Notes: generated by a model not told the origin, from the letters alone. A DNA stretch of 52,244 nucleotides from a virus (IMGVR_UViG_3300024992_000001), one strand, 5' to 3'; counted from the stretch's first letter, positions 250-51,605 are shown. Numbers and translations: made by a program.

Positions 250-278
250 TTGACATAGCGAAGCTAGTTTGCTACTAT
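250..278 (+). promoter_or_regulatory. Putative sigma70-type promoter of the leftmost early operon
   Basis: TTGACA (250-255), a 17-nt spacer, then TACTAT (273-278). It is divergent from the parA promoter. Confidence 0.6.
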
Positions 279-3348: not shown

Positions 3349-3610
3349 TTACACTTTAGCTCTTTATTGTGAAAATTACGACGATATGGACCCGGAAAAT
3401 GTTTTTGACCCTAACGACAAAGAAAAAGTTTTCCATAGCTACAAAGAATTTCCGCATGAATTTATCAGCCGGGAAGAAGGAAGCAGAGCTAGAAATTCAG
3501 CAAGAGCGGCAGGTTGGAAATTAGATGTAGATAAAGGATTAGCTTACTGCCCTAAATGTGTTAGAAGGTATAAAGATGCCATTAAGCCCAAAACAGCTTC
3601 AAATTCTTGA
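3332..3610 (+). CDS. Hypothetical protein (92 aa)
   Basis: ORF track. C-terminal CPKC motif. Confidence 0.5.
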   Translation: MPIYGNYTLALYCENYDDMDPENVFDPNDKEKVFHSYKEFPHEFISREEGSRARNSARAAGWKLDVDKGLAYCPKCVRRYKDAIKPKTASNS

Positions 3611-5072
3611 AAAAATGCGCTCAGCCCAGAAGGTAATTATCCAGTCGAAGGAAGAAGAGTTACCGCCGGACCCTGAGACGGTGCCGCCTGTTAAAAGCAA
3701 GAAGCCTTCCTGGAGTCACCAGGAGACTGCTTACAGACTGGCCTATCACCGGAACAGCTTCGCCTTCTTCATGGAAATGGGTACCGGTAAATCAAAAGTA
3801 GCGGTGGACCTGATTGTTAATAAGGGTTTCAAGCTCTCGGTTATTTTTACGGTCAAGTCGGCGGTAGATTCGGTCTGGCCGGGAGAATTCGAAAAATACG
3901 CTGCCGAGCCGGTCCAGGTGTTACACCTTAAATTCAATAAGACTGCCGTCGAAAAGGTCAAAATTGCAAAGAAATTCCTTGAAGAAGCCAAGTCCACAGG
4001 GGGCGCCGCCGTGCTGGTCATGAATTACGAACTCGGTATCCAGCCGGCTATGAAGAGTTTTCTTATGGGCCTGCCGATTGACGCGGTATTCTGCGACGAG
4101 AGCCAGAAGATACAGGCGCCCGGCGGCAAGGCCAGCCAATTCCTTTATCACCTGGGGAAGCGCGTCCATTACCGGTACCTGCTCACCGGTACGCCCTTCC
4201 CCAGCTCGCCGCTCTCGATTTACGGCCAGTACCGCTTCATGGAACCGAACATCTTCGGCACCAGCTTCAACGCTTTTAAGTACCAGTACGCCGACTTCGA
4301 CGAATTCGGGGTAACCGAATACAAGAATTTCGACGACCTGAATAAGAAGATTTACAGCCGGGCTTACCGGGTTAAGAGCGCCGATGTGCTGGACCTGCCG
4401 CCGCTCCAGACTATCGAACGGGCCTTCGAGCTGTCAGACAAGGCCCAGGCCGCCTATATGAGTATGGCCCGGACCTTCCTGGCGAAGCTCGACAAAGGCG
4501 AAATCCGAACCTCGAACGTGCTCAGTCGGGGCCTTCGCTTCCAGCAGCTTACGTCCGGCTGGCTACCTGTGGAGACCGAGCAGGGGCGGGAGCTGGAGCG
4601 GGTCGATTTTGGCAAAGAAGAAATCCTGACCGAACTCCTGGAAGGGGTCGAAGACGAAGAACCTTTCGTCATTTTCTGCCGCTTCACTCACGACCTGGAT
4701 ATTGTCCATAAAGTCAGCCTTAAACTGGGCCGCAAGTCCCTGGAGCTATCGGGCCGGGAAAACCAACTGGACCAGTGGAAGGCCGGGGCCGCGCCGGTGC
4801 TGGCGGTCCAGATTCAGGCCGGCGGGGCCGGTATAGACCTCACCAGGGCGCATTACGTGTGCTATTACTCTATCGGCTATATCCAGCCGGCTACGTATGA
4901 ACAGAGCCTTTTTAGGGCCTACCGGCCCGGCCAGCGGCAATCGGTGACCATCTATCACATCGTGGCTAAAAATACGATTGACCGCAAAATCATGTACAAC
5001 CTGGCTCACAAGCTCCAGATTAACGAAGAAGTCCTGACTTATCATTTAAGGGAAGTTGTAACGGGCAAATAA
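3576..5072 (+). CDS. SNF2-family (SF2) DNA helicase/translocase
   Basis: Motifs in the translation are FMEMGTGKSKV (I), VFCDESQKIQ (II, DExQ), LLTGTP (III), QIQAGGAGIDLT (V) and QSLFRAYRPGQ (VI). The start was set at ATG 3576. Confidence 0.85.
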   Translation: MPLSPKQLQILEKMRSAQKVIIQSKEEELPPDPETVPPVKSKKPSWSHQETAYRLAYHRNSFAFFMEMGTGKSKVAVDLIVNKGFKLSVIFTVKSAVDSVWPGEFEKYAAEPVQVLHLKFNKTAVEKVKIAKKFLEEAKSTGGAAVLVMNYELGIQPAMKSFLMGLPIDAVFCDESQKIQAPGGKASQFLYHLGKRVHYRYLLTGTPFPSSPLSIYGQYRFMEPNIFGTSFNAFKYQYADFDEFGVTEYKNFDDLNKKIYSRAYRVKSADVLDLPPLQTIERAFELSDKAQAAYMSMARTFLAKLDKGEIRTSNVLSRGLRFQQLTSGWLPVETEQGRELERVDFGKEEILTELLEGVEDEEPFVIFCRFTHDLDIVHKVSLKLGRKSLELSGRENQLDQWKAGAAPVLAVQIQAGGAGIDLTRAHYVCYYSIGYIQPATYEQSLFRAYRPGQRQSVTIYHIVAKNTIDRKIMYNLAHKLQINEEVLTYHLREVVTGK

Positions 5073-5109
5073 CCTTTTTAAGGCTTTGCCCTTTATCAAA
5101 TGGTGTGCA

Positions 5110-5145
5110 TTAACACTTGACAGGGTGTTAATCAATTGCTAATAT
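5110..5145 (+). promoter_or_regulatory. Operator-over-promoter site 1: TTAACAC-N8-GTGTTAA palindrome spanning the -35 element
   Basis: TTAACACTTGACAGGGTGTTAA (5110-5131) has perfect 7-bp inverted half-sites. TTGACA (5117-5122), a 17-nt spacer, then TAATAT (5140-5145). Confidence 0.7.
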
Positions 5146-5153
5146 ACATCATT

Positions 5154-5531
5154 ATGACGATGTTAGAGTTTCTTCGATTGCGAAAATACAAGATTGCTGC
5201 TAGACTAAATTTCCAGTCTACAGCATCGGCCAATAACCAGATAGCGAACTTCGCTCTTGCGTCTTTCGAATATCGAAAGCTCTACTTCGAGACCAACGGC
5301 GTTTACCCGCCGGACGATGAAAACGATGTTCAGCACACCGAATATTACAACCGGGTGAAATATAACCGGGGAAGGAAAACAGACCTCAAAGCGGGTGAAA
5401 AAGATAGCAAGGCGAAAACTCCGGTAAAGGGTAGGAAAGCAGTTGAGTATGCGCGGAGCCGGGGCCAGGAGAACCTTATCGAAGATTCCGAACTTGACGC
5501 CCTTGCTAACGAAATTGCCAGTCTGCTTTAG
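5154..5531 (+). CDS. Hypothetical protein, possible HTH at the N-terminus (125 aa); apparently leaderless
   Basis: ATG 5154 lies 8 nt after the -10 hexamer. The product reads MTMLEFLRLRKYKIAARLNFQS... with a basic middle region. Confidence 0.5.
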   Translation: MTMLEFLRLRKYKIAARLNFQSTASANNQIANFALASFEYRKLYFETNGVYPPDDENDVQHTEYYNRVKYNRGRKTDLKAGEKDSKAKTPVKGRKAVEYARSRGQENLIEDSELDALANEIASLL

Positions 5532-5671
5532 AAAGGATGGTGAACACCGATGATTAAATGACTGAGTTAGTAAAAGAGAAAAAAACTTAAAAATGAAATG
5601 AATTGAGTGAGTATAAACAGTTTCCAGGAGCCCGGTAATACCCATCGGGCCCCTGGAGAAAGTAAGAAGAG

Positions 5672-6061
5672 ATGGAAGTCTTAAAACAATTATTAGCAGC
5701 CCGGAAGGCCCTTGACGAAGCTAAAGCCGCCGAGAGTGAAGCACAAAAAAACTGGAGAGCCGCACAGGAAAGAGCCCTTGAATATTTCGCCGATAACGGG
5801 CTGGAGCGCGCCCGGCTCGACGGCATGACCATCTATCACACTTCCCGCGCCTGGGTAAAAGTCGACCTGGACCAGGAAGGCGTCAAAGAAGTCCTGGACC
5901 GTAACGGCCTGGGCTACCTGGTCAAAGAAACCGTAAACACTAATTCTCTTTCAAGCTGGTATAGCGAGCAAAGGGAGTTAGGCACCGAACTATCCCCCGA
6001 ATTACTCGAAGTCCTGACTATCTCCGAAACGCCGGAAGTGCGAGTCAGGAAAGCAAGTTAA
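5672..6061 (+). CDS. Hypothetical coiled-coil protein (129 aa), possibly a recombination-module accessory protein
   Basis: The N-terminus is a helical heptad-like stretch (LLAARKALDEAKAAESEAQKNWRAAQE). It sits directly upstream of the SSB-like ORF. Confidence 0.5.
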   Translation: MEVLKQLLAARKALDEAKAAESEAQKNWRAAQERALEYFADNGLERARLDGMTIYHTSRAWVKVDLDQEGVKEVLDRNGLGYLVKETVNTNSLSSWYSEQRELGTELSPELLEVLTISETPEVRVRKAS

Positions 6062-6099
6062 CACCGATTCACCGAATCAAAAATACAAGGAGTTTTACT

Positions 6100-6993
6100 A
6101 TGCCTACCAAAACTACCGACCTGGCCGTCGCTACGGCTCCCGAATATGTTGCCCTTTCTCTCGACACCAGCGAACTCACCGAAAGCTTGGCCGAGTCGCT
6201 CGGCTCGGAAGGCTTCGGGCCAAACGATTTTGACACCTTGACCGTCCCGAACGCTACCGCCGCGCCCGTGTGGAACCTGCCGGACAGTGACGAATCCCCG
6301 AAACAATTAAAAGGGATTATCATCTTTCACCAGCCGGTTCAAACCCTCTGGCTCAAACCCCTGAACGAAGGCAACTCTAACATGCCGCCGGATTGTGTTG
6401 GCCGGAAGGACCAGCGGACCGGCGAGCTGGTCGGTTCCCAAAACCGTCAATGGGTCTATGAGAACTTCAAAAATAGCCCCTATGTCCAGCGCCCCGAAGG
6501 GCTGGTTAATGAATTTCCTTCTCCCGTGTCTTCCATGCAAAAACAACTCTGCGAGACCTGCCCGTTCTCCCAGTGGAAAACTGCTCAAAAAGGCGGGGGC
6601 CAGTTCTGTACGGCGAAGCGCGATATTTACATGCTCCTGCCTGACCGGCCCTTCCCGGTCCTGGTCAAAGTGCCGCCGACCAGTCTCATTTCGGCCCGTA
6701 AGTATTTCTTGAGCCTATCTAAAAGCTTGCTCGGCCCTTCCAACGTCGAAACAATCCTTACACTCCAGAAGGAAAACGCAACTCCGCCTTACTACAAAAT
6801 TGTTTTCACGAAGGGCCCACAGGTGGACCGCGAAAACGCCGCACGGGCAAAAGCCTACGGCGCGGCTATCAAACCCTTTATCGAAAAAGCGGCGGTAACC
6901 GCTACTCAAACCGCCGCGAAGAAGTCCGGTCCGGCGGTAAGCACCTTTGACGACTTCGACGACGAAGACGAAGAAATGGACTTGGAAGATTAA
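6100..6993 (+). CDS. Putative ssDNA-binding/recombination-associated protein with an acidic C-terminal tail (297 aa)
   Basis: AAGGAG RBS. The C-terminus reads FDDFDDEDEEMDLED. A Cys cluster is present (PPDC...CETC...FC). The functional assignment is tentative. Confidence 0.45.
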   Translation: MPTKTTDLAVATAPEYVALSLDTSELTESLAESLGSEGFGPNDFDTLTVPNATAAPVWNLPDSDESPKQLKGIIIFHQPVQTLWLKPLNEGNSNMPPDCVGRKDQRTGELVGSQNRQWVYENFKNSPYVQRPEGLVNEFPSPVSSMQKQLCETCPFSQWKTAQKGGGQFCTAKRDIYMLLPDRPFPVLVKVPPTSLISARKYFLSLSKSLLGPSNVETILTLQKENATPPYYKIVFTKGPQVDRENAARAKAYGAAIKPFIEKAAVTATQTAAKKSGPAVSTFDDFDDEDEEMDLED

Positions 6994-7026
6994 CCCGCCA
7001 TAAGGTCCGTTCTCCTTACTCCTACG

Positions 7027-7056
7027 AAAAGGGCCTGCTCCACCAGGCCCTTTTTA
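7027..7056 (+). terminator. Intrinsic terminator
   Basis: AAAA-GGGCCTG-ctccac-CAGGCCC-TTTTT. Confidence 0.75.
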
Positions 7057-7070
7057 AATCAAAGGCTTTT

Positions 7071-8888
7071 ATGGAAAAAATCGAACCGGCCAGCCCGGCT
7101 ACAACCTGGTTACATTCGCTTTTTGGAACTAAAAAAAATGACGAATTTTTACTTATTTTCACGTTACCGGGGGAAACTTCGAACTGGTTCAGTAGCCTGG
7201 ACAAAGCAGCGGCTTATGCCGAATCGGCTAAAGACTACAATGTCTATTTCGGAACGGCGCTCAGCCCGGACCCCCGCGAGCTCCTAAAAAAGTACCAGGC
7301 CGAAGAACCGGACAAATATAAAAACAAGTCTATCAACGGTATCCGGTGTAAGGCCGAAGAAACACTCGGCATAGCCGGCCTGTGGGTAGACCTGGACATT
7401 AAAGGCCCCGGCCATAAAAAAACCAACCTGCCCAGGACCGAAGAAGAAGCCCTGGAGATAATCGCCGAACTTCACTTCGAGCCGTCACACCTGGTCTTTT
7501 CCGGCGGCGGCCTGCAAGCCTGGTGGACTTTCCCCGAACTATGGCGCTTCTCCGGGCCGGAAGACCGGCAGCGAGCCGCTCTGCTGGTGGAGCGCTGGCA
7601 GACTTATGTAAAGAAAATTGCGAAAGAGCAGGGCCTGAAGAAAATCGGCCAGCCCTTCGAAGTAGACAGCACTCACGACCTGGCCCGCGTCTTCCGGGTA
7701 CCCGGCACCTTTAACCGCAAAGACCCCAAAAATATTAAGCCGGTCCTTCTGGTCCAGACCGACGAAGCAATTCAAAAATACGAACCGGGAAAAATTGAAA
7801 AATTCCTGGACCAGGAAAAAATCTTCCTGGCTCCCCGCCCGGCCAGGACCAGCGAACCGGACAAAGCCGGGAAGATAAAAAACTTTTCCGGGCCGCTCGC
7901 GCTCCATAAAGACGCGTCACCGGAATTTAACGCCTTCCAGGCCCTGCTCGAAGACGAAGACGACAAGCGCTTCCGGCAAAGCTGGGAACACAAGCGCCGG
8001 GACTTTACCGACCAGTCAACGTCCGGCTACGACCTTTCCCTGGCAACGCTGGCCTTCGGGGCTGACTGGACCCCCCAGGAAGTCACTAACCTGGTTATAG
8101 CCCACAGGCGCAAGTGGAACGAAGACCTGAAGCTGGACCGGCCCGATTACTACCAACGAACAATTACCAGGGCCCAGGAAGCTTTCGCCGCCGGCAACAC
8201 AACTCCCGAAATGCTGGCCGACCAGACCAGGGACGCCCGGTCCGGCCAGAAGGAACCCATTTCAGCGGAAAAAAGAAAGGAGATTCTAGATGACCTTAGC
8301 GCAACCTTCGGGGTCGAAGTCAACGGCTGGTACAAACTGGCTGGAAGCCCTGAGACTTACATTATCGAAATTGATAGACTCCGCGTTGTCATTGGCACAG
8401 CGGATAGTGTCCTTAATCCAAAAGCTTTTGCCAGAGCAGTTTATTCGGCCTTCGACTTCGCTTTACCGACCTTTAAGCCCAAAACCTGGCAGGGAGTCGT
8501 CAACAAACTTGGCAAGATTAAAACTGACCTGGTACCGGATGAAACCGAAACAGAAGAAGGGTTACTCAGCTATTGGTTACGAAAATACCTGGCCGAGAAA
8601 CCGATACTTGAAAACGCGGTAGAAGGTATAGGCGAAGGGCAGCCCTGGTATCACAAAGACGGCAGGGTCTGTTTTCAAATCCAGGAATTCAGGAAATATC
8701 TCCAGGTCTACCGCGTAAACGAATTTAAGACTTTTACCAAAATTCTTAACAACATCGGGGCCGAATACGACTCTAGCAAAATCGCAATCGGCCCGGACCA
8801 GTACATTGGCCGCGCTAAATGGATTTTACCCTGGGCCTTCTCTAACAAGCAGCCCCAGGCCGAACAGGAGCAAGAAGATGAACAGTAA
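7071..8888 (+). CDS. Archaeo-eukaryotic-type primase-polymerase (prim-pol) with a C-terminal helical/primase-C-like region (605 aa)
   Basis: GLWVDLDIKG (DxD), SGGGLQAWW and FRVPGTFNRK motifs are present. The size and position fit a replication module. Confidence 0.75.
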   Translation: MEKIEPASPATTWLHSLFGTKKNDEFLLIFTLPGETSNWFSSLDKAAAYAESAKDYNVYFGTALSPDPRELLKKYQAEEPDKYKNKSINGIRCKAEETLGIAGLWVDLDIKGPGHKKTNLPRTEEEALEIIAELHFEPSHLVFSGGGLQAWWTFPELWRFSGPEDRQRAALLVERWQTYVKKIAKEQGLKKIGQPFEVDSTHDLARVFRVPGTFNRKDPKNIKPVLLVQTDEAIQKYEPGKIEKFLDQEKIFLAPRPARTSEPDKAGKIKNFSGPLALHKDASPEFNAFQALLEDEDDKRFRQSWEHKRRDFTDQSTSGYDLSLATLAFGADWTPQEVTNLVIAHRRKWNEDLKLDRPDYYQRTITRAQEAFAAGNTTPEMLADQTRDARSGQKEPISAEKRKEILDDLSATFGVEVNGWYKLAGSPETYIIEIDRLRVVIGTADSVLNPKAFARAVYSAFDFALPTFKPKTWQGVVNKLGKIKTDLVPDETETEEGLLSYWLRKYLAEKPILENAVEGIGEGQPWYHKDGRVCFQIQEFRKYLQVYRVNEFKTFTKILNNIGAEYDSSKIAIGPDQYIGRAKWILPWAFSNKQPQAEQEQEDEQ

Positions 8889-9357
8889 AGAAAAAGCCGG
8901 GTATGACCTGGGCGTTCAGCTTTTCCAGGCCGCTACGCTGTTAGCTCTCCGGTCCGGTGTAAGCAAGTTTTTTCTCGAAGGTGAGCTTAAAGATATTGAA
9001 GCCAGGTACCAGCGAGAAAGTTTGAATACTCTTCGCCTGGAGAAACACTGTACCTGCCCGGAAGGTCACCCGGAAATTATTCAATCTGATTGCCCGATTC
9101 ACTGGGAAACCTACCGGCGAAATAACTGTATTTGCATGGGGGGAAGGACTAAAGACTGCCTCTTTCATGGTGGCAATAACTGTCTTTGCCTGGTAACGAA
9201 CGGTATCCGACAGCCTAACGGAGCTAACAACTGCCCGGAACACCAGTACAAAACTATCACTGTTAACTATTGGTTTGAGAAATCTGTAAGAGCCTTTATA
9301 GACAAACTCAATAAGGAAAACCCCTACCCGGAAGACATTATCGGAAATATAGGTTAA
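8878..9357 (+). CDS. Hypothetical Cys/His-rich protein (159 aa; internal ATG chosen)
   Basis: ATG 8878 overlaps the prim-pol stop. Multiple C/H clusters are present (CTCPEGHPE..CPIH..CICMGG..CLFHGG..CLC..CPEH). Confidence 0.5.
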   Translation: MNSKEKAGYDLGVQLFQAATLLALRSGVSKFFLEGELKDIEARYQRESLNTLRLEKHCTCPEGHPEIIQSDCPIHWETYRRNNCICMGGRTKDCLFHGGNNCLCLVTNGIRQPNGANNCPEHQYKTITVNYWFEKSVRAFIDKLNKENPYPEDIIGNIG

Positions 9358-9359
9358 AC

Positions 9360-9593
9360 ATGAGTAACTTTAAGAAGAGGCTTCAAATTCAAGAACCGGA
9401 AATTGAAGAGTGTAAATGTTACTTTACCCAGGGCCCTTTTTTAATCCTTAACCTGGAATGTCAACATCACCAGGATAAACTTGCTGAAATCTTCAAACTT
9501 CCTGCCGGTGTTGAAAAACAAGATAAGTTGAATGATTTTTACCAGGAAATCCAGCTTACCCAGGAGTTGAGAGAAAGCGGGTTACTTGAATGA
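9360..9593 (+). CDS. Hypothetical protein (77 aa)
   Basis: ORF track. ATGA coupling to the helicase gene. Confidence 0.5.
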   Translation: MSNFKKRLQIQEPEIEECKCYFTQGPFLILNLECQHHQDKLAEIFKLPAGVEKQDKLNDFYQEIQLTQELRESGLLE

Positions 9594-11272
9594 AAGAGTT
9601 TGTTATAGCCGGACCGCCCGGCACCGGGAAAACTTCGGAGATAAAAAAGATTGTCCAGGCCATGCTCGCCGGCGGGAAGGTTAAGAATTACGAAATCGGC
9701 CTGACCAGCTTCACGAAGGCCGGGGCCGTCGAACTGACCGGCGGTAACCCGGTGCCGGGCTCCTGTATCGGTACGCTTCACTCTTTCGCCTTCCGGGGCC
9801 TGGGCCTGGAAAAAGACCAGGTAGCGGAAAGTCACCTGGAAATCTGGAACTCCGAAAATCCCCAGTACCGGCTCAACGACGGTTTTAAAACAGCCAACCC
9901 GGACGACGCCGGCATGGTCGAAAACCCGGCGGCAACCGAAGCCGACCAGATTTACAGCCAGTACAACATCTGCCGGGCCCGGCTTATAAAGCACGATCTC
10001 CAGCCGCCCCAGGTACAACGCTTCGCGGCCAGGTGGGAAGCCTGGAAGAAAGAACATAGCTTCTTTGACTTCGCCGACATGATTGACCTGGCTTTCGAAA
10101 GCGTTCAAGAAATGCCGGTGCATTACTCCGAAGGCTCGAAGAAATGGACCGGGCCCAAAGTCCTCTTCGGTGACGAATTCCAGGATTTTACCCGCGCTGA
10201 GCGCCGGTTATTCGACAAATGGGCCCGCCCTGTGGAAATGGCGCTCAAAGTCGGAGACGCCGATCAGACCCTTTATTATTTCAAAGGGGCTGACCCGGAC
10301 GGCATGTACCGGCCCGAACTGCCGGACATGCAAAAACGTTCCCTTAAACAATCACACCGGGTACCGGTAGCAGTCCACAGGGCAGCCGTAGCCCTGATAA
10401 ACCGGATTAAACACCGCGAACAAATTGATTACCTACCGACCGGCGTCGAAGGTTCGGTAGGACAACTGGAGTGCGATTTCAATCACCCGGAGAGATTAAT
10501 TAAGCGGGTAGAAAAAGACCTGGCCGAAGGGATGACCGTCGGTATAATGGCCCCCTGCTCTTACCAGTTAAAAAGTATCCTGGCCGTCCTTCGTAAAGAA
10601 GGAATCCCCTTCTGTAATACTTACCGTCTTACTCGCGGAGACTGGAACCCGGTAAAGACCGGCGGCAAGAGCACCAGCTCCGCCGAACGATTGGCCGCCT
10701 TCCTGAACCCCTGGTACACCGGAGACAGCTTTAAGAAATGGGCCAGCCTGCTCGACAGCAAAGAAGCCCTGGAGCACGGCCAGAAAACTGTAATCGAACA
10801 CCTGGAAGGGGTCGACCTGCTGAGCGTTGAAACGGTCCTGAAAATGATTAAACCACAGGCGCTCGCCGAACTTATGACGCTTTCACTCGAAGACCTGCCC
10901 GGCCTGGCCGTCACTCCGCAAGAATTTTTAAAAGACCTGGTCCAGCCGGACATTCAAGTCTTCCATAGAATGATGACGAAAGCCGCGGCTACCGCTATGG
11001 AATTCCCGGTAAAAATAGCCGCGAAGCAGGGCGCGAAGGCCCTGGCCGGGCCCTATAAGCTCCAGGTCGGCACGATTCATTCGTTCAAAGGCGGTCAATT
11101 CGATTCGACTTATATCATACCGGACCTGAGCGCGAAGGGCGCCCAGGAAGCCCAGAGCAGCCGAGCCAGTCGAGACGCCGTTATTCGAATGTTTTATGTA
11201 GCGCTTACCCGCGCTCGCTTAAAAGCAACTATCCTGGCCCCTGGCTCTCCCTGGGGATATAAGGTGCTGTAA
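9590..11272 (+). CDS. SF1 (UvrD/PcrA/RecD-like) DNA helicase (560 aa)
   Basis: The translation contains AGPPGTGKTS (Walker A), LFGDEFQDFT (motif II), SHRVP, GTIHSFKGGQFD and FYVALTRAR. Confidence 0.85.
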   Translation: MKEFVIAGPPGTGKTSEIKKIVQAMLAGGKVKNYEIGLTSFTKAGAVELTGGNPVPGSCIGTLHSFAFRGLGLEKDQVAESHLEIWNSENPQYRLNDGFKTANPDDAGMVENPAATEADQIYSQYNICRARLIKHDLQPPQVQRFAARWEAWKKEHSFFDFADMIDLAFESVQEMPVHYSEGSKKWTGPKVLFGDEFQDFTRAERRLFDKWARPVEMALKVGDADQTLYYFKGADPDGMYRPELPDMQKRSLKQSHRVPVAVHRAAVALINRIKHREQIDYLPTGVEGSVGQLECDFNHPERLIKRVEKDLAEGMTVGIMAPCSYQLKSILAVLRKEGIPFCNTYRLTRGDWNPVKTGGKSTSSAERLAAFLNPWYTGDSFKKWASLLDSKEALEHGQKTVIEHLEGVDLLSVETVLKMIKPQALAELMTLSLEDLPGLAVTPQEFLKDLVQPDIQVFHRMMTKAAATAMEFPVKIAAKQGAKALAGPYKLQVGTIHSFKGGQFDSTYIIPDLSAKGAQEAQSSRASRDAVIRMFYVALTRARLKATILAPGSPWGYKVL

Positions 11273-11511
11273 TGCCTGAAATAAATATTGGAGACATTAT
11301 CGAATTTTTTTCACCGGATGATAAAGCCTGGTTAACCGGTAAAGTATTGTATATCGAAGAAAAGCATAACCCAGGAGCCCGTAAAGCTTCAGAAGCCTGG
11401 GTAAAAACCGCTTACCTGGAAACTCCTGGGCTCTGGGAAAAGAAAATTTATGGTATTCGGCTGGACAAATTAAAAGAGCTTATAAATTACGGCCACGTGA
11501 TTCAATATTGA
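11272..11511 (+). CDS. Hypothetical protein (79 aa)
   Basis: TAATG coupling to the helicase gene. Confidence 0.55.
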   Translation: MPEINIGDIIEFFSPDDKAWLTGKVLYIEEKHNPGARKASEAWVKTAYLETPGLWEKKIYGIRLDKLKELINYGHVIQY

Positions 11512-11518
11512 GGCTGAA

Positions 11519-11785
11519 ATGAAGCAACTATTTTATTCAAGAAAGCAGTTTTCCCTGGGTAAAAACGTTATATCTATTCAAAATTCAGGAGCGTTCCGGT
11601 ATAACGAACTTTTTCTAGGTATCTCCTGGCGGGTTAATAAATGGTTTAATAATGATAAAAAGAGGAAACAAGAGAATAAACCTTATTCTTACGACCTTCA
11701 AATATGGATTTACCTTTTACCAGGGTTAAGCTTTTTAACGACAATTACCATTTACCCTAACAGCTTAAAGGTGATGCATGAGTAG
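11519..11785 (+). CDS. Doubtful hypothetical ORF in a visibly AT-rich stretch (88 aa)
   Basis: ORF track only. Its composition differs from the flanks and the protein is low-complexity. Confidence 0.3.
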   Translation: MKQLFYSRKQFSLGKNVISIQNSGAFRYNELFLGISWRVNKWFNNDKKRKQENKPYSYDLQIWIYLLPGLSFLTTITIYPNSLKVMHE

Positions 11786-12143
11786 GATTACGACCGAAGA
11801 AGGTCTGGAGAACGCCTTTATAAAACTCTTAAAAGGTTGGCAGGCCCAGGGTAAACCGGTCTTTCAATTCAAGGGTAACCCTACTTTTGATAAGGGGATA
11901 GTTGACCGCCTGGTCTGTTACTACGGTATTTTCGTTGCTATCGAGTTAAAGAAGCCTGGCCGGATAACTCACCCGGACGGCACCAGGAAGAAAACCTTTC
12001 GGCCCAGCTCGCCGACCGAGGCACTTCAGGCCCTTTTTATAGATGAAGTAAGACGGGGTAAGGGCTACGGTGATTTCTTCGATAATCTCGAAGAAATTGT
12101 TAAATTCTTCGAAATGATTCACGAAAAAGAGTGTCTTAACTAA
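11778..12143 (+). CDS. VRR-NUC / PD-(D/E)xK-type nuclease (121 aa)
   Basis: GIVDRLV...GIFVAIELKKPG...ALQALFIDEV matches the D...ExK...Q core pattern of VRR-NUC domains. This family is a common partner of phage SNF2 helicases. Confidence 0.65.
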   Translation: MSRITTEEGLENAFIKLLKGWQAQGKPVFQFKGNPTFDKGIVDRLVCYYGIFVAIELKKPGRITHPDGTRKKTFRPSSPTEALQALFIDEVRRGKGYGDFFDNLEEIVKFFEMIHEKECLN

Positions 12144-12157
12144 ATCCTTTTAGGAAA

Positions 12158-12193
12158 TTAACAATTGACAGTGTATTAACCCTTAGTTATTAT
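12158..12193 (+). promoter_or_regulatory. Operator-over-promoter site 2
   Basis: TTAACAATTGACAGTGTATTAA (12158-12179). TTGACA (12165-12170), a 17-nt spacer, then TATTAT (12188-12193). Confidence 0.65.
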
Positions 12194-12205
12194 AAAGGTG
12201 ATTGT

Positions 12206-12481
12206 ATGCAGGATAATAACCAGCAGCCCGGCCCGGACCATTACTCCGTCGAACATAGCTACGGGGTAATGAATATTCTAAGTTGTGCTTTTTTAATTCA
12301 AGAAGATGGGAACAATATTGCAGTCGCTTACGTAAATAAGGCCGGACAAACAATTTTTCTGGCCGAGCCGAACTGGCCCGGAAGCATGCAGGTTGTACAA
12401 GAGATATTCTCCAAATTTCTACAAGAGTTGAAAAGGCTCCAGGAAGAGAGTCCAGGGGCGCGAAACCCCGGCCTGAACTGA
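12206..12481 (+). CDS. Hypothetical protein (91 aa)
   Basis: First ORF after promoter site 2. AAGGTGA RBS. Confidence 0.55.
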   Translation: MQDNNQQPGPDHYSVEHSYGVMNILSCAFLIQEDGNNIAVAYVNKAGQTIFLAEPNWPGSMQVVQEIFSKFLQELKRLQEESPGARNPGLN

Positions 12482-12493
12482 AAGGTTAAACAG

Positions 12494-12811
12494 ATGACAG
12501 CAGCGATATTAATGGAAAATGAACAGTCTACCGAGCCTAAAACCTTTATCGAATGGCTTCAACAAAAAAAAGAGCAGTTTGAACTGGATTACGATTCCGA
12601 ACTGGCCGAACGCCTGGGCCTTTATGAAGAGACCGTTAACCGGCTTTTCTCAGGTAAACAAAACCCCTCTGCTTCTAACGTTCAAACCATCATCGAAAAA
12701 TTAAAATTAAGAGAAGGCAGCGCTGAATATAATCTTCTTCTCAAACTTGCTCACGAAGCCCGGTATAAATCCGAGCGGGCCTGGAGACGCCCTAACCGAA
12801 AATCAAATTAG
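12494..12811 (+). CDS. XRE/Cro-CI-like helix-turn-helix regulator (105 aa)
   Basis: SELAERLGLYEETVNRLFSGKQNPSASNVQTIIEKL fits the HTH_XRE pattern. It is a candidate binder of the dispersed operators. Confidence 0.55.
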   Translation: MTAAILMENEQSTEPKTFIEWLQQKKEQFELDYDSELAERLGLYEETVNRLFSGKQNPSASNVQTIIEKLKLREGSAEYNLLLKLAHEARYKSERAWRRPNRKSN

Positions 12812-12835
12812 CCTTTTCTGGCTACTACTAAAATA

Positions 12836-12865
12836 TTGACTCGCCCTTAGTTTAAATGTAAAAAT
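12836..12865 (+). promoter_or_regulatory. Putative operator-free promoter of the membrane-protein moron
   Basis: TTGACT (12836-12841), a 17-18 nt spacer, then TGTAAAAAT (extended -10-like). No TTAACAC/GTATTAA half-sites. Confidence 0.45.
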
Positions 12866-12921
12866 AATAGGTAGTCTTTTCAAAAACGCTTCGGCAAGAG
12901 TAAAAAGGATTACCTATTTTT

Positions 12922-13650
12922 ATGTCAACTTCACAGAATCCACAGGCAGGACCAGACCGCCCCGCTGGTCAACCGCAACCGCCTCAACAACAATTTTACC
13001 CCCAGCAGACCCAACAGTACCCGCCTCAATATCAACAACCCCAGTATCAACAACCTTACTATCCCCCGCCGGCAGCTCCGGCGCCCAGGAAAAAAGGTTT
13101 TCCCTGGTGGGGCTGGTTACTGGTGGTCATTGTTGCCCTGGTCGTTATAAGCGCCGTCGCAACCAGCGCGAACAAAGGCACCGCAACCGCAACTGCTACG
13201 GCAGCGCCGGCGGCGGCTCAGCCGACCGCTGCCGCTCCTACTGCCGGCCAGGCCGCAACGGTCGGTAAAATCGGCCAGACCATGACCCTTAAAGGCTACC
13301 AGATAACCGTTAACGGTATCGAGAAGAAAGACAACTTCGGCACCAGCGATTTTACCAAGGCTAAAGACGGCAATACCTTTATCGCGGTCGACCTGACCGT
13401 TGCCAGTACCCAGGACAAAGGAGTTAACCCGAACGGGCTTTCCGCAACCCTTAAAGACGGTAACGGCTATAAATATTCCATTAAGCCGACCGGTTACAAA
13501 GAACCGCTCTTCCCCGGCCAGAACGACCTTCCCGCCGGCGATAAAGTCCGGGGCTGGGTTACTTACGAAGTACCTAAAAATGCTACCGGCCTGGTCCTGG
13601 AGTATACCCCGCTCCTGGATAGCGGCCTGGTCCGAATAGCACTGGATTAA
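12922..13650 (+). CDS. Membrane-anchored protein with a Pro/Gln-rich N-terminus and a DUF4352-like Ig-fold ectodomain (242 aa)
   Basis: PQQ-rich N-terminus, one TM (WWGWLLVVIVALVVISAV) and an Ala/Thr linker. The beta-rich C-domain reads FIAVDLTV...GDKVRGWVTYEVP. Confidence 0.65.
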   Translation: MSTSQNPQAGPDRPAGQPQPPQQQFYPQQTQQYPPQYQQPQYQQPYYPPPAAPAPRKKGFPWWGWLLVVIVALVVISAVATSANKGTATATATAAPAAAQPTAAAPTAGQAATVGKIGQTMTLKGYQITVNGIEKKDNFGTSDFTKAKDGNTFIAVDLTVASTQDKGVNPNGLSATLKDGNGYKYSIKPTGYKEPLFPGQNDLPAGDKVRGWVTYEVPKNATGLVLEYTPLLDSGLVRIALD

Positions 13651-13658
13651 CATAACTA

Positions 13659-13694
13659 AAAATAACCGGCTGGTTCTCAGCCGGTTATTTTTAT
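13659..13694 (+). terminator. Intrinsic terminator
   Basis: AAAATAACCGGCTG-gttct-CAGCCGGTTATTTTT. Long perfect stem plus a T-run. Confidence 0.8.
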
Positions 13695-13703
13695 GCCCAT
13701 TAA

Positions 13704-13739
13704 TTAACACTTGACAGGGTATTAATTTTAGAGTACCAT
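13704..13739 (+). promoter_or_regulatory. Operator-over-promoter site 3
   Basis: TTAACACTTGACAGGGTATTAA (13704-13725). TTGACA (13711-13716), a 17-nt spacer, then TACCAT. Confidence 0.6.
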
Positions 13740-13747
13740 ACTAGCAT

Positions 13748-13765
13748 TAAAGCAATATTGCTTTA
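13748..13765. promoter_or_regulatory. 18-bp perfect palindrome TAAAGCAATATTGCTTTA between tandem operator-promoters 3 and 4
   Basis: Read directly. The function is unknown. It could be a second regulator site. Confidence 0.4.
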
Positions 13766-13818
13766 GTGTTATAACAGCCCTGAAGTAAATGTAAATGTGT
13801 AAGTTGTTGCGCTTTACC

Positions 13819-13854
13819 TTAACACTTGACAGGGTATTAATCTATTGCTAGTAT
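13819..13854 (+). promoter_or_regulatory. Operator-over-promoter site 4
   Basis: TTAACACTTGACAGGGTATTAA (13819-13840), identical to site 3. TTGACA, a 17-nt spacer, then TAGTAT (13849-13854). Confidence 0.7.
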
Positions 13855-13909
13855 ACAACTATCAATTTACAATTGATTAAACTTTTTAATATTTGAGCAG
13901 GAGAAAAAG

Positions 13910-14032
13910 ATGCCTGGCCGTTGTGTTTATTGCAAAGGTAAGGGAACTGAGTTTCATCGTGACCTGGGCTGGCTCTGTGCCTTCTGCGCGAAAAGGAAAA
14001 AGTTTATTTTAAGAAAGTGGGTCTCCAGATGA
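13910..14032 (+). CDS. Hypothetical zinc-ribbon mini-protein (40 aa, below the ORF-track cutoff)
   Basis: Read by eye. GGAG RBS. The product is MPGRCVYCKGKGTEFHRDLGWLCAFCAKRKKFILRKWVSR. The stop overlaps the next ATG. Confidence 0.5.
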   Translation: MPGRCVYCKGKGTEFHRDLGWLCAFCAKRKKFILRKWVSR

Positions 14033-14136
14033 ATTTTAACATTTTCGAAGTCCTTAACCTGGTCGTTGCTTTCGTCGTCGTTCTCGGCCCCCTGGTTATC
14101 CTGCATGCCTATTTTGGCAAGAAACGGAACGGTTAA
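14029..14136 (+). CDS. Hypothetical single-TM peptide (35 aa, below the ORF-track cutoff)
   Basis: Read by eye. The product is MNFNIFEVLNLVVAFVVVLGPLVILHAYFGKKRNG. It is ATGA-coupled to the previous ORF, and the next ATG follows 1 nt after its stop. Confidence 0.4.
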   Translation: MNFNIFEVLNLVVAFVVVLGPLVILHAYFGKKRNG

Positions 14137-14137
14137 C

Positions 14138-14653
14138 ATGAATCAGGACATAAAGTTCGAGGTTGTGCCCAAAGAGTTCGAGATTGCCAAATTACCCGTG
14201 CAATCGCTCCAGAAGACGCTGCTCGAAGCCCTGGCCTACCAGGCCGGGCAGAAGTACAAAAAAAACCCGGTAAAATCGAGCATCTATCTGGATTTCTACG
14301 CCGACCGGCAGGAGATAACTGTCGGCTGCTTCGAGCCGGCGAAGTTCTGGACCGTACCGGTACATTTCTCAAAGGCCGATGACTACCAGGTTCTTTTGAG
14401 CCGGACCGCCGCCGGCGCGCTGGTCCGGCTCCTGGCAAAACTCACTCTGCACGGCCTGTGGATTTCTGTACGCAAGGCTACCTGGCAAATTAACTTCTAC
14501 AGCACCCAGGAACGCCAGCTAAGCGTCGTTTCGATTAAGGCTGGTTCAAATGCTTTCCGTAAAGCATACAGGGCCTTAGAACGGCCCCTGACCAGTCCTC
14601 TTCTTCTTTCCGACACCGAGTTAAGTAAAATTAAAGAAGAAGTATTTGCTTAA
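14138..14653 (+). CDS. Hypothetical protein (171 aa; internal ATG of ORF 14066-14653 chosen)
   Basis: ATG 14138 fits the tight packing. No motif recognised. Confidence 0.55.
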   Translation: MNQDIKFEVVPKEFEIAKLPVQSLQKTLLEALAYQAGQKYKKNPVKSSIYLDFYADRQEITVGCFEPAKFWTVPVHFSKADDYQVLLSRTAAGALVRLLAKLTLHGLWISVRKATWQINFYSTQERQLSVVSIKAGSNAFRKAYRALERPLTSPLLLSDTELSKIKEEVFA

Positions 14654-14667
14654 AATAGCACACTATT
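14654..14667. promoter_or_regulatory. Palindrome AATAG-N4-CTATT (AATAGCACACTATT), second copy of the parA-promoter motif
   Basis: It lies immediately after the stop codon at 14651-14653. TAAAATAGCAC is shared with 198-208. Confidence 0.4.
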
Positions 14668-14705
14668 ATTTACTTCTTTAAGCTCAGAATAGTACATTTA
14701 TTCTA

Positions 14706-14740
14706 AAAACTATTGACAGGGTATTAATTTAGTAGATAAT
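14706..14740 (+). promoter_or_regulatory. Operator-over-promoter site 5 (left half-site degenerate)
   Basis: AAAACTATTGACAGGGTATTAA. TTGACA (14713-14718), a 16-nt spacer, then GATAAT (14735-14740). Confidence 0.5.
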
Positions 14741-14787
14741 AAGTTCTAAATAACACGCAATTCTGTTTTATCCTTTTGCGAACGGAA

Positions 14788-14823
14788 TTAACACTTGCAC
14801 AAGTATCAATCTATTAACAATAT
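14788..14823 (+). promoter_or_regulatory. Operator-over-promoter site 6 (variant)
   Basis: TTAACACTTGCACAAGTATCAA (14788-14809). The -35 is TTGCAC and the -10 region is A/T-rich (CAATATAT). Confidence 0.5.
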
Positions 14824-14875
14824 ATGATGATAAAATATAATAGATTGAGAATTGATAAGGAAGGAGTAACGATTT

Positions 14876-15166
14876 ATGGCAACTAATTTAGCAGCCCCCG
14901 CTCCAGCAGTAAAAGTTAAATACAGCCTTTTCGTCAGTTTCGGTAACCGGTCCGGTTTCGGTACCGGCGCGGTGGACCTGCCCGAAGCCCGCAAGAAAAT
15001 TCTCCAGGCGGCCAAAGATTTCGCTCACCATGACAATCTGGATTTCGAGCTGACCGAAGTCTGCGAAAACTGCGAAGGCCGGGGCTATAAGAAGACCGGA
15101 AAAGGCGGGATTGTTATCGTCAACTGCGTAAAGTGCAACGGCACCGGCGGCACCAGAATCCTTTAA
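14876..15166 (+). CDS. Small protein with a DnaJ-type CxxCxGxG zinc-finger pair (96 aa)
   Basis: CENCEGRG and CVKCNGTG repeats. Strong RBS (AAGGAAGGAG). Confidence 0.6.
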   Translation: MATNLAAPAPAVKVKYSLFVSFGNRSGFGTGAVDLPEARKKILQAAKDFAHHDNLDFELTEVCENCEGRGYKKTGKGGIVIVNCVKCNGTGGTRIL

Positions 15167-15171: not shown

Positions 15172-15215
15172 ATATTGAAATAGCATTACTCTAGTATTAC
15201 TTAAATGCTATTTCA
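15172..15215. promoter_or_regulatory. 12-bp inverted repeat TGAAATAGCATT-N16-AATGCTATTTCA; the left arm is part of a 16-mer identical to 294-309
   Basis: Read directly. No T-run follows, so a protein-binding site is more likely than a terminator. Confidence 0.45.
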
Positions 15216-17945: not shown

Positions 17946-18248
17946 ATGACCGAGCAATTACAGGGTAAAACCGAATGGGAAATCACCGAGACCGGGGAGA
18001 ATGACGACCCGCATTACTTTCTCGAACTCCAGGTCAGTTTCCTTAATCTGATGATTACCCCGATGGGCCCGAACGCTTTCGAGGTAGACATAACCCAGTT
18101 GAGCGACGGCGAAGTTATCAGAACTACGGGCCTGGAAGGCTACCCGAAAACGCTTGAAGCCGCGAAAGCAAAAGCCTTCGAACTGGCCGAAGATGTTTTG
18201 AAAAACGAGCTCCAGGTTTTAAGTCTTTTGAAAGCAGGTCAAAAATGA
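17946..18248 (+). CDS. Hypothetical protein (100 aa)
   Basis: ORF track. ATGA coupling downstream. Confidence 0.55.
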   Translation: MTEQLQGKTEWEITETGENDDPHYFLELQVSFLNLMITPMGPNAFEVDITQLSDGEVIRTTGLEGYPKTLEAAKAKAFELAEDVLKNELQVLSLLKAGQK

Positions 18249-20771: not shown

Positions 20772-21077
20772 ATGAAATGCCGCCGCCCGGTGCCGCTCTG
20801 CCGGCACGACGCGCTCCACCAGCTCGCCGGCTATCACGTCTTCCTGGCCCTATTTAATCGGGTTACCCATTACCACACGGGCCGGACCGGGCAATTGCGC
20901 TTTATCGGGCTCTACGACCCGGAGCGCTCGGACTGGCCCTGCATCGTGCGGTATCCGGTAAAGAGCGGCGGTACCCACGACCGGGCCAGCGCGAGCCTGT
21001 TATCATTCCGACCGGCTGGCCGCCGGAAGCCCCGGCCCGATAAAACAATCAGGAAATCAATTCAGAAAAGACGTTGA
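20772..21077 (+). CDS. Hypothetical CxxC protein, GC-rich paralogue of 18910-19350 (start uncertain; ORF open from 20640)
   Basis: CMKCRRPVPLC plus LRFIGLYDPERSDWPCIVRY. The segment is visibly more GC-rich than its neighbours. Confidence 0.5.
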   Translation: MKCRRPVPLCRHDALHQLAGYHVFLALFNRVTHYHTGRTGQLRFIGLYDPERSDWPCIVRYPVKSGGTHDRASASLLSFRPAGRRKPRPDKTIRKSIQKRR

Positions 21078-21166
21078 CAAAGTGTGGTATAGTGGAAGTG
21101 GACAGTGTGTTCCTCCTTTTAGGCTGACTTGGTTCGATACGTTGCTAAGTGGGTTGCGGTAGAAGT

Positions 21167-21226
21167 TGCCCCCGGCTATAAATTTTCTCAGACTCCATCT
21201 CCTGGGAAAATCGGTAGCCGGGGGCA
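21167..21226. other. Two-tier GC-rich hairpin at the end of the early arm
   Basis: The outer stem is GCCCCCGGCTA (21168-21178) with TAGCCGGGGGC (21215-21225). The inner stem is TTTTCTCAG with CCTGGGAAAA. No T-run follows. Confidence 0.6.
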
Positions 21227-21249
21227 GCGTCGTTTATCGGGATAATAGG

Positions 21250-21585: not shown

Positions 21586-21699
21586 CAGAAAGTCAGCTTT
21601 CGGAAAAATTAAATTATTTTTTATATTTTTATTACTACTCAGTAGTGACAAAATGGGTTTTGGGCTTAACTTTTGGCCGGGAAAAATTCGAAATTCTTC

Positions 21700-50372: not shown

Positions 50373-50942
50373 TTAATCTTCTCCCCATTTATCGTTTCTT
50401 TTAGCCCAGTCTACAGCCCCGGCATTTTTATTTTTATTTTGCCTGGAGGTATTAACCTTTTTATTTTGTTTTTCTTTTGTATCTGTATATTTTGCAGTAG
50501 GGGTATCTGCAAAATTTGCGGTACCCCCATCTGCAAAATTTGCAGTAGGGGTGTGGATAAGTGGATAACCCTTGATGTTAAGCTCATAGATGCTGGTATC
50601 TTTTGCACCGTTCGCCTTATTCATCAAATGTTTGAAGATGAAACCCCGCTGGACCAGGCTCTTTAGAGCTGTCGCTAAACTCCGCTCGCTGACTCCAGCT
50701 CCCCGGTCCACCTGGGAGCCGTCGAACCGCTTGATACCTTCCATGAACTGGCTATAGCTGATTGCGTCGGCGGCTTTCCGGTCACCGTACTGCGTGGTAT
50801 AGCCGTAAGTGTGCCGGAAAATATAGAGCATTACTTTTAACTCGCTCTCGGATAAATCCTGCATTAAAAAATCCAGGAACTTATTCGGAATTCCGGTAAA
50901 AGTCGGCTCTCCAAAACCTTCAAACTCGGTTGAAGTAGTCAT
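50373..50942 (-). CDS. rep: Replication initiator with a lambda-O/DnaD-like winged-helix N-terminus (189 aa)
   Basis: IPNKFLDFLMQDLSESELKVMLYIFRHTYGY...SYSQFMEGI...GVSERSLATALKSLVQRGFI. Iterons and DnaA boxes lie inside its 3' third. Confidence 0.7.
   Translation of the reverse strand: MTTSTEFEGFGEPTFTGIPNKFLDFLMQDLSESELKVMLYIFRHTYGYTTQYGDRKAADAISYSQFMEGIKRFDGSQVDRGAGVSERSLATALKSLVQRGFIFKHLMNKANGAKDTSIYELNIKGYPLIHTPTANFADGGTANFADTPTAKYTDTKEKQNKKVNTSRQNKNKNAGAVDWAKRNDKWGED
50481..50552. repeat. Three tandem 24-bp iterons inside rep
   Basis: The units are ATCTGTATATTTTGCAGTAGGGGT, ATCTGCAAAATTTGCGGTACCCCC and ATCTGCAAAATTTGCAGTAGGGGT. Each contains the palindrome CTGCAAA-A-TTTGCAG or a variant. 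Confidence 0.7.
50552..50568. promoter_or_regulatory. Two tandem DnaA-box-like 9-mers
   Basis: TGTGGATAA (50552-50560) is the reverse complement of the consensus TTATCCACA. AGTGGATAA (50560-50568) is the reverse complement of TTATCCACT. Confidence 0.5.
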
Positions 50943-50948
50943 TTTGGC

Positions 50949-50984
50949 TATTTACTTTCTTTTTCACACCTGCTAAGATGTGAA
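50949..50984 (-). promoter_or_regulatory. Putative rep promoter with an inverted repeat over the -35 element; near-leaderless
   Basis: The minus strand reads TTAGCA (50976..50971), a 16-nt spacer, TAAATA (50954..50949), then 6 nt and the ATG. The IR TTCACA/TGTGAA (50963-50984) brackets the -35. Confidence 0.4.
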
Positions 50985-51129: not shown

Positions 51130-51333
51130 TTAGCCGATACGGACAAACATATTAGGATACTTTTCTGTTACATCTTCAACTTTAACCGGCAATTCCCCCT
51201 TATCAGCCTTTTCCTGTAAATCTTTCCTTAGCTCTTCAAAAACTTCGTCCGATAAATACTCATTCATATTTACTTCGTTACTGATTTGAAAAACCCAGTC
51301 TTTAGAGTAAATTTTAGCAATTTTCTTTTTCAT
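51130..51333 (-). CDS. Hypothetical acidic protein, third gene of the par operon (67 aa; internal ATG chosen)
   Basis: ATG 51333 overlaps the upstream stop (TAATG). The product reads MKKKIAKIYSKDWVF... Confidence 0.5.
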   Translation of the reverse strand: MKKKIAKIYSKDWVFQISNEVNMNEYLSDEVFEELRKDLQEKADKGELPVKVEDVTEKYPNMFVRIG

Positions 51334-51605
51334 TACTCTCCAGCTCCCCGCCGCGCTAACTTTTCCCGGCAAGCATTGTTAATCCAGGTATTGACGCTCA
51401 CATCGTCTTCTTCAGCGGCTTTTTTGATTTCTTCCAGGAGCGCCGGTCGAAAGTAAGTCGAATAAGGCTTTTTATTTTTTCTGCTCTCGGTTTCCACAGG
51501 TGGGGCGACTTCGGCTTCCAGCTCGCCCAGGAAGCGGTCAGCGGCGGCGGCCTGGTCGGTATTCCCTTTTACCGGCAGTTTCGTGACTTTGGTAGTGAGC
51601 GCCAT
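51333..51605 (-). CDS. parG: Ribbon-helix-helix (ParG/CopG-like) centromere-binding/partition adaptor candidate (90 aa)
   Basis: The C-terminal KKPYSTYFRPALLEEIKKAAEEDDVSVNTWINNACREKL fits a strand-helix-helix fold. It lies directly downstream of parA. Confidence 0.6.
   Translation of the reverse strand: MALTTKVTKLPVKGNTDQAAAADRFLGELEAEVAPPVETESRKNKKPYSTYFRPALLEEIKKAAEEDDVSVNTWINNACREKLARRGAGE

Follow-up and report, generated by a model that had tools for sequence, protein, structure and literature searches.

Phage P1 carries 22 operators, which are asymmetric 17-mers with the consensus ATTGCTCTAATAAATTT (PMC8546580). The stoperators of Cluster A mycobacteriophages are asymmetric 13-bp sequences bound by a monomer, located mostly off promoters and blocking elongation (PMC6550527, PMC9283540), and some phages of that cluster have parABS instead of an integrase (PMC6550527). 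Here we describe six dispersed, dyad-symmetric elements in the viral sequence IMGVR_UViG_3300024992_000001, a stretch of 52,244 nucleotides called hereafter the window. Each of them lies over the -35 hexamer of a predicted early promoter, and a small XRE-family protein encoded among the same early genes would be their repressor. In phage phiC31, Ingham et al. reportedly found in 1994 an inverted repeat of ~17 bp in many intergenic regions of the early arm, beside early promoters highly similar to one another. The phiC31 early promoters are not known to follow the sigma-70 consensus, nor the repeats to be centred on the -35, and the c repressor is unrelated to the XRE protein in size and family. 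The controller (C) proteins of restriction-modification systems act on a single operon through two adjacent sites, with activation followed by repression.

The 22-mer TTAACACTTGACAGGGTRTTAA occurs exactly at 5110, 13704 and 13819 and with two mismatches at 12158, always on the plus strand; 100 dinucleotide-preserving shuffles yielded 0 matches, and the chance expectation, allowing up to 3 mismatches, is 0. The 15-nt asymmetric core TTGACAGGGTATTAA is also found exact at 14713, which corresponds to a site at 14706 without the left arm, and a pattern made of the arms only recovers the variant TTAACACTTGCACAAGTATCAA at 14788. The six plus-strand positions proposed by a first-pass annotation of the window (5110, 12158, 13704, 13819, 14706 and 14788) are confirmed by this motif search and by the raw sequence, as are the distances within the two tandem pairs, 115 bp from 13704 to 13819 and 82 bp from 14706 to 14788. 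All copies are intergenic and upstream of plus-strand genes, two of them coming after terminators, and they spread across 9.7 kb at the head of four transcription units, in keeping with the at least four early units expected. An additional match at 29846, with 3 mismatches and within a coding sequence, was taken as chance. The genome scan revealed neither extra copies nor an excess of half-sites within coding regions, and elsewhere in the genome half-sites show no enrichment (18 observed versus 14.5 +/- 3.5 expected, 9 of the 18 being inside the six sites). Pattern scans of genomes and metagenomes gave six loci, of which a single one is related to the window, a 98.75% identical fragment spanning sites 3-6 (L006); the other five have no BLAST similarity to the window and were set aside as chance hits. 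The sites, with the predicted promoters and units to which they belong, are the following.

5109..5132, plus strand: site 1, candidate 24-bp operator ATTAACAC-TTGACAGG-GTGTTAAT, arms 8/8; predicted -35 at 5117-5122 and -10 TAATAT (17 nt) at 5140-5145 with TG extension; unit, the replication module (orf125, DUF7307, primase-polymerase, UvrD-like helicase) to 12143.
12157..12180, plus strand: site 2, the most degenerate full copy (TTAACAA...GTATTAAC, 2 mismatches); predicted -35 at 12165-12170 and -10 TATTAT (17 nt) at 12188-12193; unit, orf91, the XRE gene and probably the gene of a protein resembling superinfection-exclusion proteins (Sie-like).
13703..13726, plus strand: site 3, exact 22-mer and upstream half of a tandem pair, with no open reading frame (ORF) between sites 3 and 4; predicted -35 at 13711-13716 and -10 TACCAT (17 nt) at 13734-13739.
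13818..13841, plus strand: site 4, exact 22-mer; predicted -35 at 13826-13831 and -10 TAGTAT (17 nt) at 13849-13854 with TG extension; unit, small ORFs 13910-14032 and 14066-14653.
14705..14728, plus strand: site 5, -35 (14713-14718) and right arm exact, left arm absent (2/7); predicted -10 GATAAT (16 nt) at 14735-14740.
14787..14810, plus strand: site 6, arms retained (TTAACAC...GTATCAA), core now TTGCACAA; predicted promoter TTGCAC-17-CAATAT with the -10 at 14818-14823; unit, genes from 14876 on.
14814..14841, plus strand: second predicted promoter overlapping site 6, TTAACA-16-TATAAT.

Alignment of the six copies shows a conserved block of 24 bp, ATTAACAC-N8-GTRTTAAT, that spans positions -8 to +15 from the start of the -35 (first -35 base = 0) and is symmetric about +3.5. 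In all six copies the dyad axis falls inside the hexamer (TTGA|CA). The inverted repeat, originally described as 7-N8-7, keeps its dyad symmetry over the -35, the block being really 8-N8-8. Conservation ends beyond both edges of the block, except in sites 1, 4 and 6, which share a weaker similarity down to the -10. Complementarity over the 7-nt arms is complete (7/7) at site 1 alone and falls to 6/7 for sites 3 and 4, to 5/7 for sites 2 and 6 and to 2/7 for site 5. When complementarity was counted between -12..-1 and +8..+19 over the six sites, 40/72 pairs were obtained about +3.5, which ranks first of the 32 axes scanned; the p-value of 1.5e-5, as all symmetry p-values given here, treats family members as independent and is hence overstated, a point that counts against reading the elements as operators. 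The -35 is the consensus TTGACA in five of the six sites, and the expected -10-like hexamer 16-17 nt after the -35 is borne out at each site by the promoter scan. From these hexamers and their spacing we infer promoter activity, and predicted sigma-70-type promoters with a dyad-symmetric element over the -35 are supported. The change in the core of site 6 weakens the -35 and, as read from the sequence, makes the centre more palindromic (8/11 pairs). No matching -35 was seen by eye for a minus-strand promoter using ATTAAT in the spacer.

Further evidence comes from other phages. Through homologues of the primase and the SNF2 helicase we reached three contigs of distant relatives with synteny of the replication module, L001, L019 and L020, whose SNF2 proteins are 56, 55 and 48% identical to that of the window, respectively. 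Each has a family of sigma-70-like promoters of its own, far above chance, in which a sequence specific to that phage is conserved around a consensus -35, with arms that differ from ATTAACAC / GTRTTAAT of the window.

L001: family TTGACA-AGTTGATAAT, four copies; arms roughly nTTAnnAA / TTGATAAT; dyad axis +3.5 with 22/48 complementary pairs, p 0.006, first of 32 axes.
L019: family TTGACA-AGATGGGAATA, five copies, 4 within three mismatches of the 17-mer and the fifth (18228) found by inspection; arms TTnCCA / TGGnAA; dyad axis +3.5 with 23/60 pairs, p 0.027, joint second of 32 axes.
L020: family TTGACA-GATTAGCAAAT, six copies; arms ATTTG / CAAAT; dyad axis +3.5 with 30/60 pairs, p 3e-4, first of 32 axes.

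As a control, TTGACA sites outside the families have a mean of 2.5-2.9/12 complementary pairs, versus 4.6-6.7/12 in family sites. A family promoter precedes the orf125 orthologue in all four phages (L001 7381, L019 11440, L020 12013, and site 1 of the window) and another one precedes the XRE orthologue or its operon (L001 15699, L019 18228, L020 19340, and site 2). The arm sequences therefore vary among the four phages at a constant dyad axis. Symmetry kept while the sequence changes is expected of a dimeric, phage-specific DNA-binding protein, and it is not predicted by RNA polymerase contacts or by recent duplication. This replication across families is a stronger argument than the p-values, and with it the reading of the elements as operators is reasonably well supported by comparative sequence evidence.

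The protein proposed as repressor is encoded within the regulon:

12494..12811, plus strand: XRE-family (HTH_3) protein, 105 aa.

It matches Pfam HTH_3 with an E-value of 6.8e-6 (26.5 bits versus a cut-off of 23) and PHROG families of the 'transcriptional repressor' class, and a four-sequence XRE profile has the N-terminal domain of lambda cI as its best match in the PDB (E 0.004). A single-sequence AlphaFold2 (AF2) model has five helices, with a predicted local distance difference test score (pLDDT) of 74.7, and Foldseek matched it to the lambda cI N-terminal domain, DdrO, Stl, C.BclI, C.AhdI, 434 Cro, P22 c2 and SinR, the top matches having probabilities >0.9 but weak E-values of 0.1-1. The 105 residues hold no C-terminal peptidase or RecA-cleavage domain. 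Orthologues with 30-36% identity are present in exactly the four phages with promoter families, while five more distant relatives (L009, L010, L012, L023 and L024) have neither an XRE orthologue nor such families. Recognition helices differ among the four orthologues (EETVNRL, PENISRI, ANNLSRI and SDYLSQV). Moreover, of all family members the one that precedes the XRE gene deviates most in the window, L001 and L019, and ties for this rank in L020, which fits a repressor whose own promoter closes last. This ORF, one of two put forward in the first-pass annotation, stands as the best candidate binder by its fold, by its phyletic pattern and as the sole Pfam helix-turn-helix (HTH) protein in the scan.

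From the position of the axis and these properties of the protein we infer that a dimer of the XRE protein probably, though by no means securely, binds operators on the -35 of all six promoters and shuts the early units down together. The six elements would be early promoters read by the host RNA polymerase, each with a 24-bp operator, and since consensus or near-consensus promoters should fire unaided, repression is the economical reading. The dimer would contact both arms (consensus half-site ATTAAYAC), with its centre near -31.5 and a footprint of roughly -43 to -20, and would keep sigma region 4 off the -35. Four units would be turned down jointly: 5154-12143, the XRE/Sie cassette, 13910-14653, and 14876 onward. 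Sites 3 and 4, 115 bp or ~11 helical turns apart, would allow cooperative binding. As the XRE gene would be transcribed from the degenerate site 2, negative autoregulation would follow, its promoter being partly open at repressor levels that close the better sites 1, 3 and 4. Such a negative-feedback loop would by itself be monostable. By setting a low steady state it could keep a plasmid prophage quiet; just as well, it could turn off or dose-compensate the early transcription of a lytic cycle.

The elements could also be real operators of another protein, an explanation that we consider unlikely, with orf125 (5154-5531), orf121 (11778-12143) or a small early protein, for instance that of orf321, as the binder. 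Conservation of orf125 and orf121 extends to each of the four phages with promoter families, orf125 being everywhere the first gene after the site 1 promoter, and several small ORFs have no detectable domain. Nevertheless, these candidates display no HTH, ribbon-helix-helix (RHH) or other DNA-binding signature, and orf121 is weakly detected in distant relatives devoid of promoter families, whereas fold and phyletic pattern are both as expected for the binder in the case of the XRE protein. The product of orf125, the second binder proposed initially, was discarded for want of any DNA-binding signature: it has no Pfam, PHROG or PDB match, and its AF2 model is of low confidence and consists for the most part of a single long helix. 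N-terminal conservation of the protein starts at the first ATG, and the gene looks like a part of the replication module in which it sits.

A second possibility, which the first-pass annotation had itself envisaged, is that the similarity reflects promoter cassettes only, the 22-24 bp block having been copied or selected for RNA polymerase contacts and the inverted repeat being incidental. Sites 1, 4 and 6 are indeed alike down to the -10 and +1 (39-nt family D2), a consensus -35 in five of six sites with a near-consensus -10 needs no activator, and the predicted promoter of site 5 would work with one arm only. But conservation ends symmetrically at both edges of the repeat, site 6 retains its arms while losing the -35 consensus, and a 7-pair outer palindrome in one fixed register has a chance probability of ~6e-5, (1/4)^7. 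In addition, the arms differ in the four related phages with the dyad axis constant relative to the -35, and polymerase contacts are not expected to vary between phages. Since three relatives keep the axis and change the arms, the element behaves like a protein-binding site, and the cassette explanation is improbable.

Phage-specific conserved sequences around the -35 are known from the MotA boxes of T4, and in that light the elements might be recognized by an activator or by a factor appropriating sigma that marks a temporal class, the middle genes. The likeness to MotA boxes and the first early promoter (250), which has no site, so that the six promoters could be a later class, are in its favour. 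The -35 and -10 hexamers, however, are consensus or near-consensus at optimal spacing, so that the polymerase of the host should need no help to fire from them, sigma region 4 would be blocked by a dimer centred near -31.5, and family scans of the scanned ORFs detected no sigma-like or AsiA/MotA-like protein, which makes this explanation very improbable. Finally, partition proteins such as N15 SopB and omega of pSM19035 work as centromere binders and promoter silencers, and the phage encodes a ParA and a 90-aa Arc-like RHH protein (51333 to 139), the half-sites being heptad-like, but the idea of dispersed parS-like centromeres for this cassette, also silencing promoters, is hardly credible and was rejected on L019 and L020, which keep dyad-symmetric families with no ParA/RHH module in the ~20 kb read, and no 22-bp motif lies upstream of parA, where a repeat of the AAATAGCA family overlaps the promoter.

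Several other observations weigh against repression by an XRE dimer. Site 5 is single-armed, and the whole promoter cassettes of sites 1, 4 and 6 are likely to share some ancestry. In L001 the arms are complementary in only 5-6/12 positions, and L019 is weak for the +3.5 axis and shows, at three sites, a second and stronger axis at -0.5. Among the early plus-strand ORFs scanned no Pfam HTH other than the XRE protein was found, but the scan covered part of the genome's ORFs, and other conserved small proteins without a recognizable domain (orf125, orf121, orf321) could be binders. Within the lineage, the ~45 near-identical assemblies offer no variation in which covariation of the arms could appear; the fetched copies are 99.9-100% identical, with no covariation.

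Some side observations concern the relatives and the leaders. The second palindrome of L019, with its axis at the upstream edge of the -35, is found at 3541-3560, 11430-11449 and 18218-18237. It reads ATCTTGTCAA|TTGACAAGAT, is a perfect 20-mer at 3551 and puts TTGACA back to back on each strand; the copy before the XRE gene carries a symmetric C:G to A:T change in both arms. Of the more distant relatives, L009 has at 683-1300 a classical divergent CI-like switch, in which three clustered repeats of TTTCATTAAATTGATG, at 1133, 1209 and 1240, lie opposite a minus-strand gene for an HTH protein of 143 aa, and L024 has an integrase. At site 1 of the window the -10 ends 8 nt upstream of the orf125 ATG (5140-5156), and an equal 8-nt gap is seen in L001 (7404-7420), so that the orf125 mRNA would be leaderless or have a leader of 1-2 nt. 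At site 2 the predicted start would remove the good ribosome-binding site of orf91, AGGTGA. A small palindrome, TCAATTTACAATTGA, is located in the leader below site 4 (13861-13880), its RNA fold not being significant, and a small RNA between the tandem promoters was rejected, as the RNAs are not significantly structured (z -1.6 to -1.8).

The genes and signals around the sites are arranged as follows. Nearly all genes are on the plus strand, with a single minus-strand block across the circular junction. Small early genes begin at 321 and are followed by the SNF2 helicase and site 1, then by orf125, DUF7307, the primase-polymerase, the UvrD-like helicase and site 2, then by orf91, the XRE gene, the Sie-like gene and a bidirectional terminator; sites 3/4, two small ORFs, sites 5/6 and more early genes to ~21 kb come next, and the terminase, portal, tail and endolysin genes lie downstream.

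5063..5091, plus strand: terminator-like hairpin followed by TTTAT, downstream of the SNF2 gene (-12.7 kcal/mol, z -2.2), predicted to insulate site 1 from upstream transcription.
12922..13650, plus strand: DUF4352 protein resembling superinfection-exclusion proteins.
13657..13693, both strands: bidirectional terminator, stem of 16 bp, at the end of the XRE/Sie cassette and directly before site 3.

The gene at 12922 had been credited with its own operator-free promoter. A TTGACT free of any site is present at 12836, and it is a possible promoter only. In the 576 bp of AT-rich non-coding sequence at 21077-21653, directly upstream of the terminase genes, several AATAATCA / TGATTATT repeats are found; this stretch could serve as a site for packaging or as a control region of late genes.

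The window, JGI contig Ga0209960_1000861, has an identical stretch of 127 nt in direct orientation at its two ends (1-127 and 52118-52244) and is therefore a circular assembly of 52,117 bp, with the parA gene spanning the junction. The same phage is assembled in ~45 datasets, as a circle of 52.1-52.4 kb with varying start points in 39/45 collection blocks and as shorter contigs in the remaining ones, and it is never embedded in a longer contig among the ~45 assemblies. One copy lies within an NCBI metagenome-assembled genome labelled Chloroflexi, the sole hint of a host. No integrase was found among the ORFs scanned in the window, and scans for tRNAs and for known RNA genes of Rfam were empty. 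Among cultured phages, megablast gave no match for 5000-15000 of the window, and the relatives recovered by tblastn, with terminase and primase as queries, were all at ~30% identity or less; a search of IMG/VR found neither the motif nor the primase.

The sites had been interpreted as multi-operator immunity. The repressor gene is co-directional with its own regulon and located inside it, and thus lytic early shut-off or feedback fits equally. The absence of an obvious divergent repressor gene, stated in the first-pass annotation, is right for the XRE gene, but the circular junction has a module of divergent orientation (ParA, RHH and RepO-like, 50373 to 139). It is a plasmid-like minus-strand module, 50373-52244 plus 1-139, composed of a RepO-like initiator, an 80-aa ORF, the RHH protein and ParA, and it lies beside the first early promoter.

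50373..50942, minus strand: RepO-like initiator, its gene carrying three 24-bp iterons in tandem (50479-50550) and an AT-rich stretch within the 3' end.
51333..51605, minus strand: Arc-like RHH protein, 90 aa.
Across the junction to 139, minus strand: ParA, 215 aa, small Walker type, type Ib-like.
250..278, plus strand: first early promoter, predicted, TTGACA-17-TACTAT with TG extension and without the 22-bp site.

As the first early promoter has no site, one repressor does not control all early transcription. Around this promoter and the divergent one of parA are two 32-nt direct repeats that contain AAATAGCA (185-216 and 285-316). This 8-mer has seven occurrences in the genome, 6/7 of them intergenic (140-320, and also 14651-14662, 15176-15215, 21351 and 34139), and at 15176-15215 it takes the form of an inverted repeat whose arms measure 12 bp. 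The AAATAGCA repeats look like a second, separate operator family, or they may be the centromere recognized by the RHH protein.

The junction module suggests that the phage is a phage-plasmid. A prophage role is favoured by the ParA-RHH-RepO module, by the Sie-like gene beside the XRE gene and by the free-circle assemblies; against it stand the lack of a divergent switch at the XRE gene, the virulent-looking relatives and the strong site-free promoter at 250-278. In L019 and L020 the first early promoter belongs to the family and the endolysin gene is directly followed by a family promoter, and the ParA/RHH/RepO module was not found in the ~20 kb read from either phage, the position after the endolysin gene included. 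One could imagine that a one-directional, virulent-looking siphovirus lineage ran all its early promoters through an autoregulated XRE dimer, and that the phage of the window gained the ParA-RHH-RepO module between endolysin and early genes and swapped its first early promoter for one under a different repeat, a change by which a regulator of lytic feedback would have become the repressor of immunity in a phage-plasmid. We regard this history as doubtful and put it forward tentatively; if true, it would be a snapshot of a temperate phage-plasmid arising from a lytic backbone, possibly in a Chloroflexi host.

If confirmed, repression by the XRE dimer would define a compact predicted regulon of six operators, one 105-aa repressor and four transcription units in a cosmopolitan uncultured phage known from ~45 assemblies, and would bear on whether the ParA/RepO module makes it a phage-plasmid. 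The four related phages would form a natural specificity series, with the same geometry and different arms and recognition helices, useful for the study of repressor/operator co-divergence and as a source of orthogonal promoter/repressor parts.

With respect to the systems described at the outset, the likeness to the P1 C1 regulon proposed for these sites stands as logic: many dispersed operators serve several operons, and the phage carries partition and replication genes. It does not extend to the components, since the operators here are symmetric 24-mers in place of asymmetric 17-mers, and the XRE protein is a Cro/CI-type HTH to which C1 is unrelated; no accessory immunity components of the Coi, Lxc or c4 type were identified in the phage of the window. 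The P1 prophage is a plasmid, while here plasmid lysogeny would be suggested by the genes and the free circles. The stoperators of Cluster A phages (L5, Bxb1) resemble the sites in being many and in one orientation across the genome, and differ in that every site here is symmetric and on a -35. The dispersed inverted repeats of phiC31 would be the nearest layout. Controller proteins share the small XRE-fold dimers (C.BclI, C.AhdI), the palindromes over the -35 and an autoregulated operon, but in the window six dispersed promoters are involved and there are no restriction-modification genes. The Cro/CI-type repressors of lambda, 434 and P22, and Xre of PBSX, have in common with this system the HTH_3 fold class, symmetric operators over the core promoter and autoregulation; in contrast to them, there is no clustered OL/OR and no divergent repressor/cro pair, the XRE gene being located among the early genes and read in the same direction as they are, and the six operators lying on -35s over 9.7 kb. 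By its fold and operator symmetry the system therefore belongs with the Cro/CI-type repressors, minus the clustered divergent switch, and would represent a known kind of circuit, with no new regulatory principle, in a new phage lineage.

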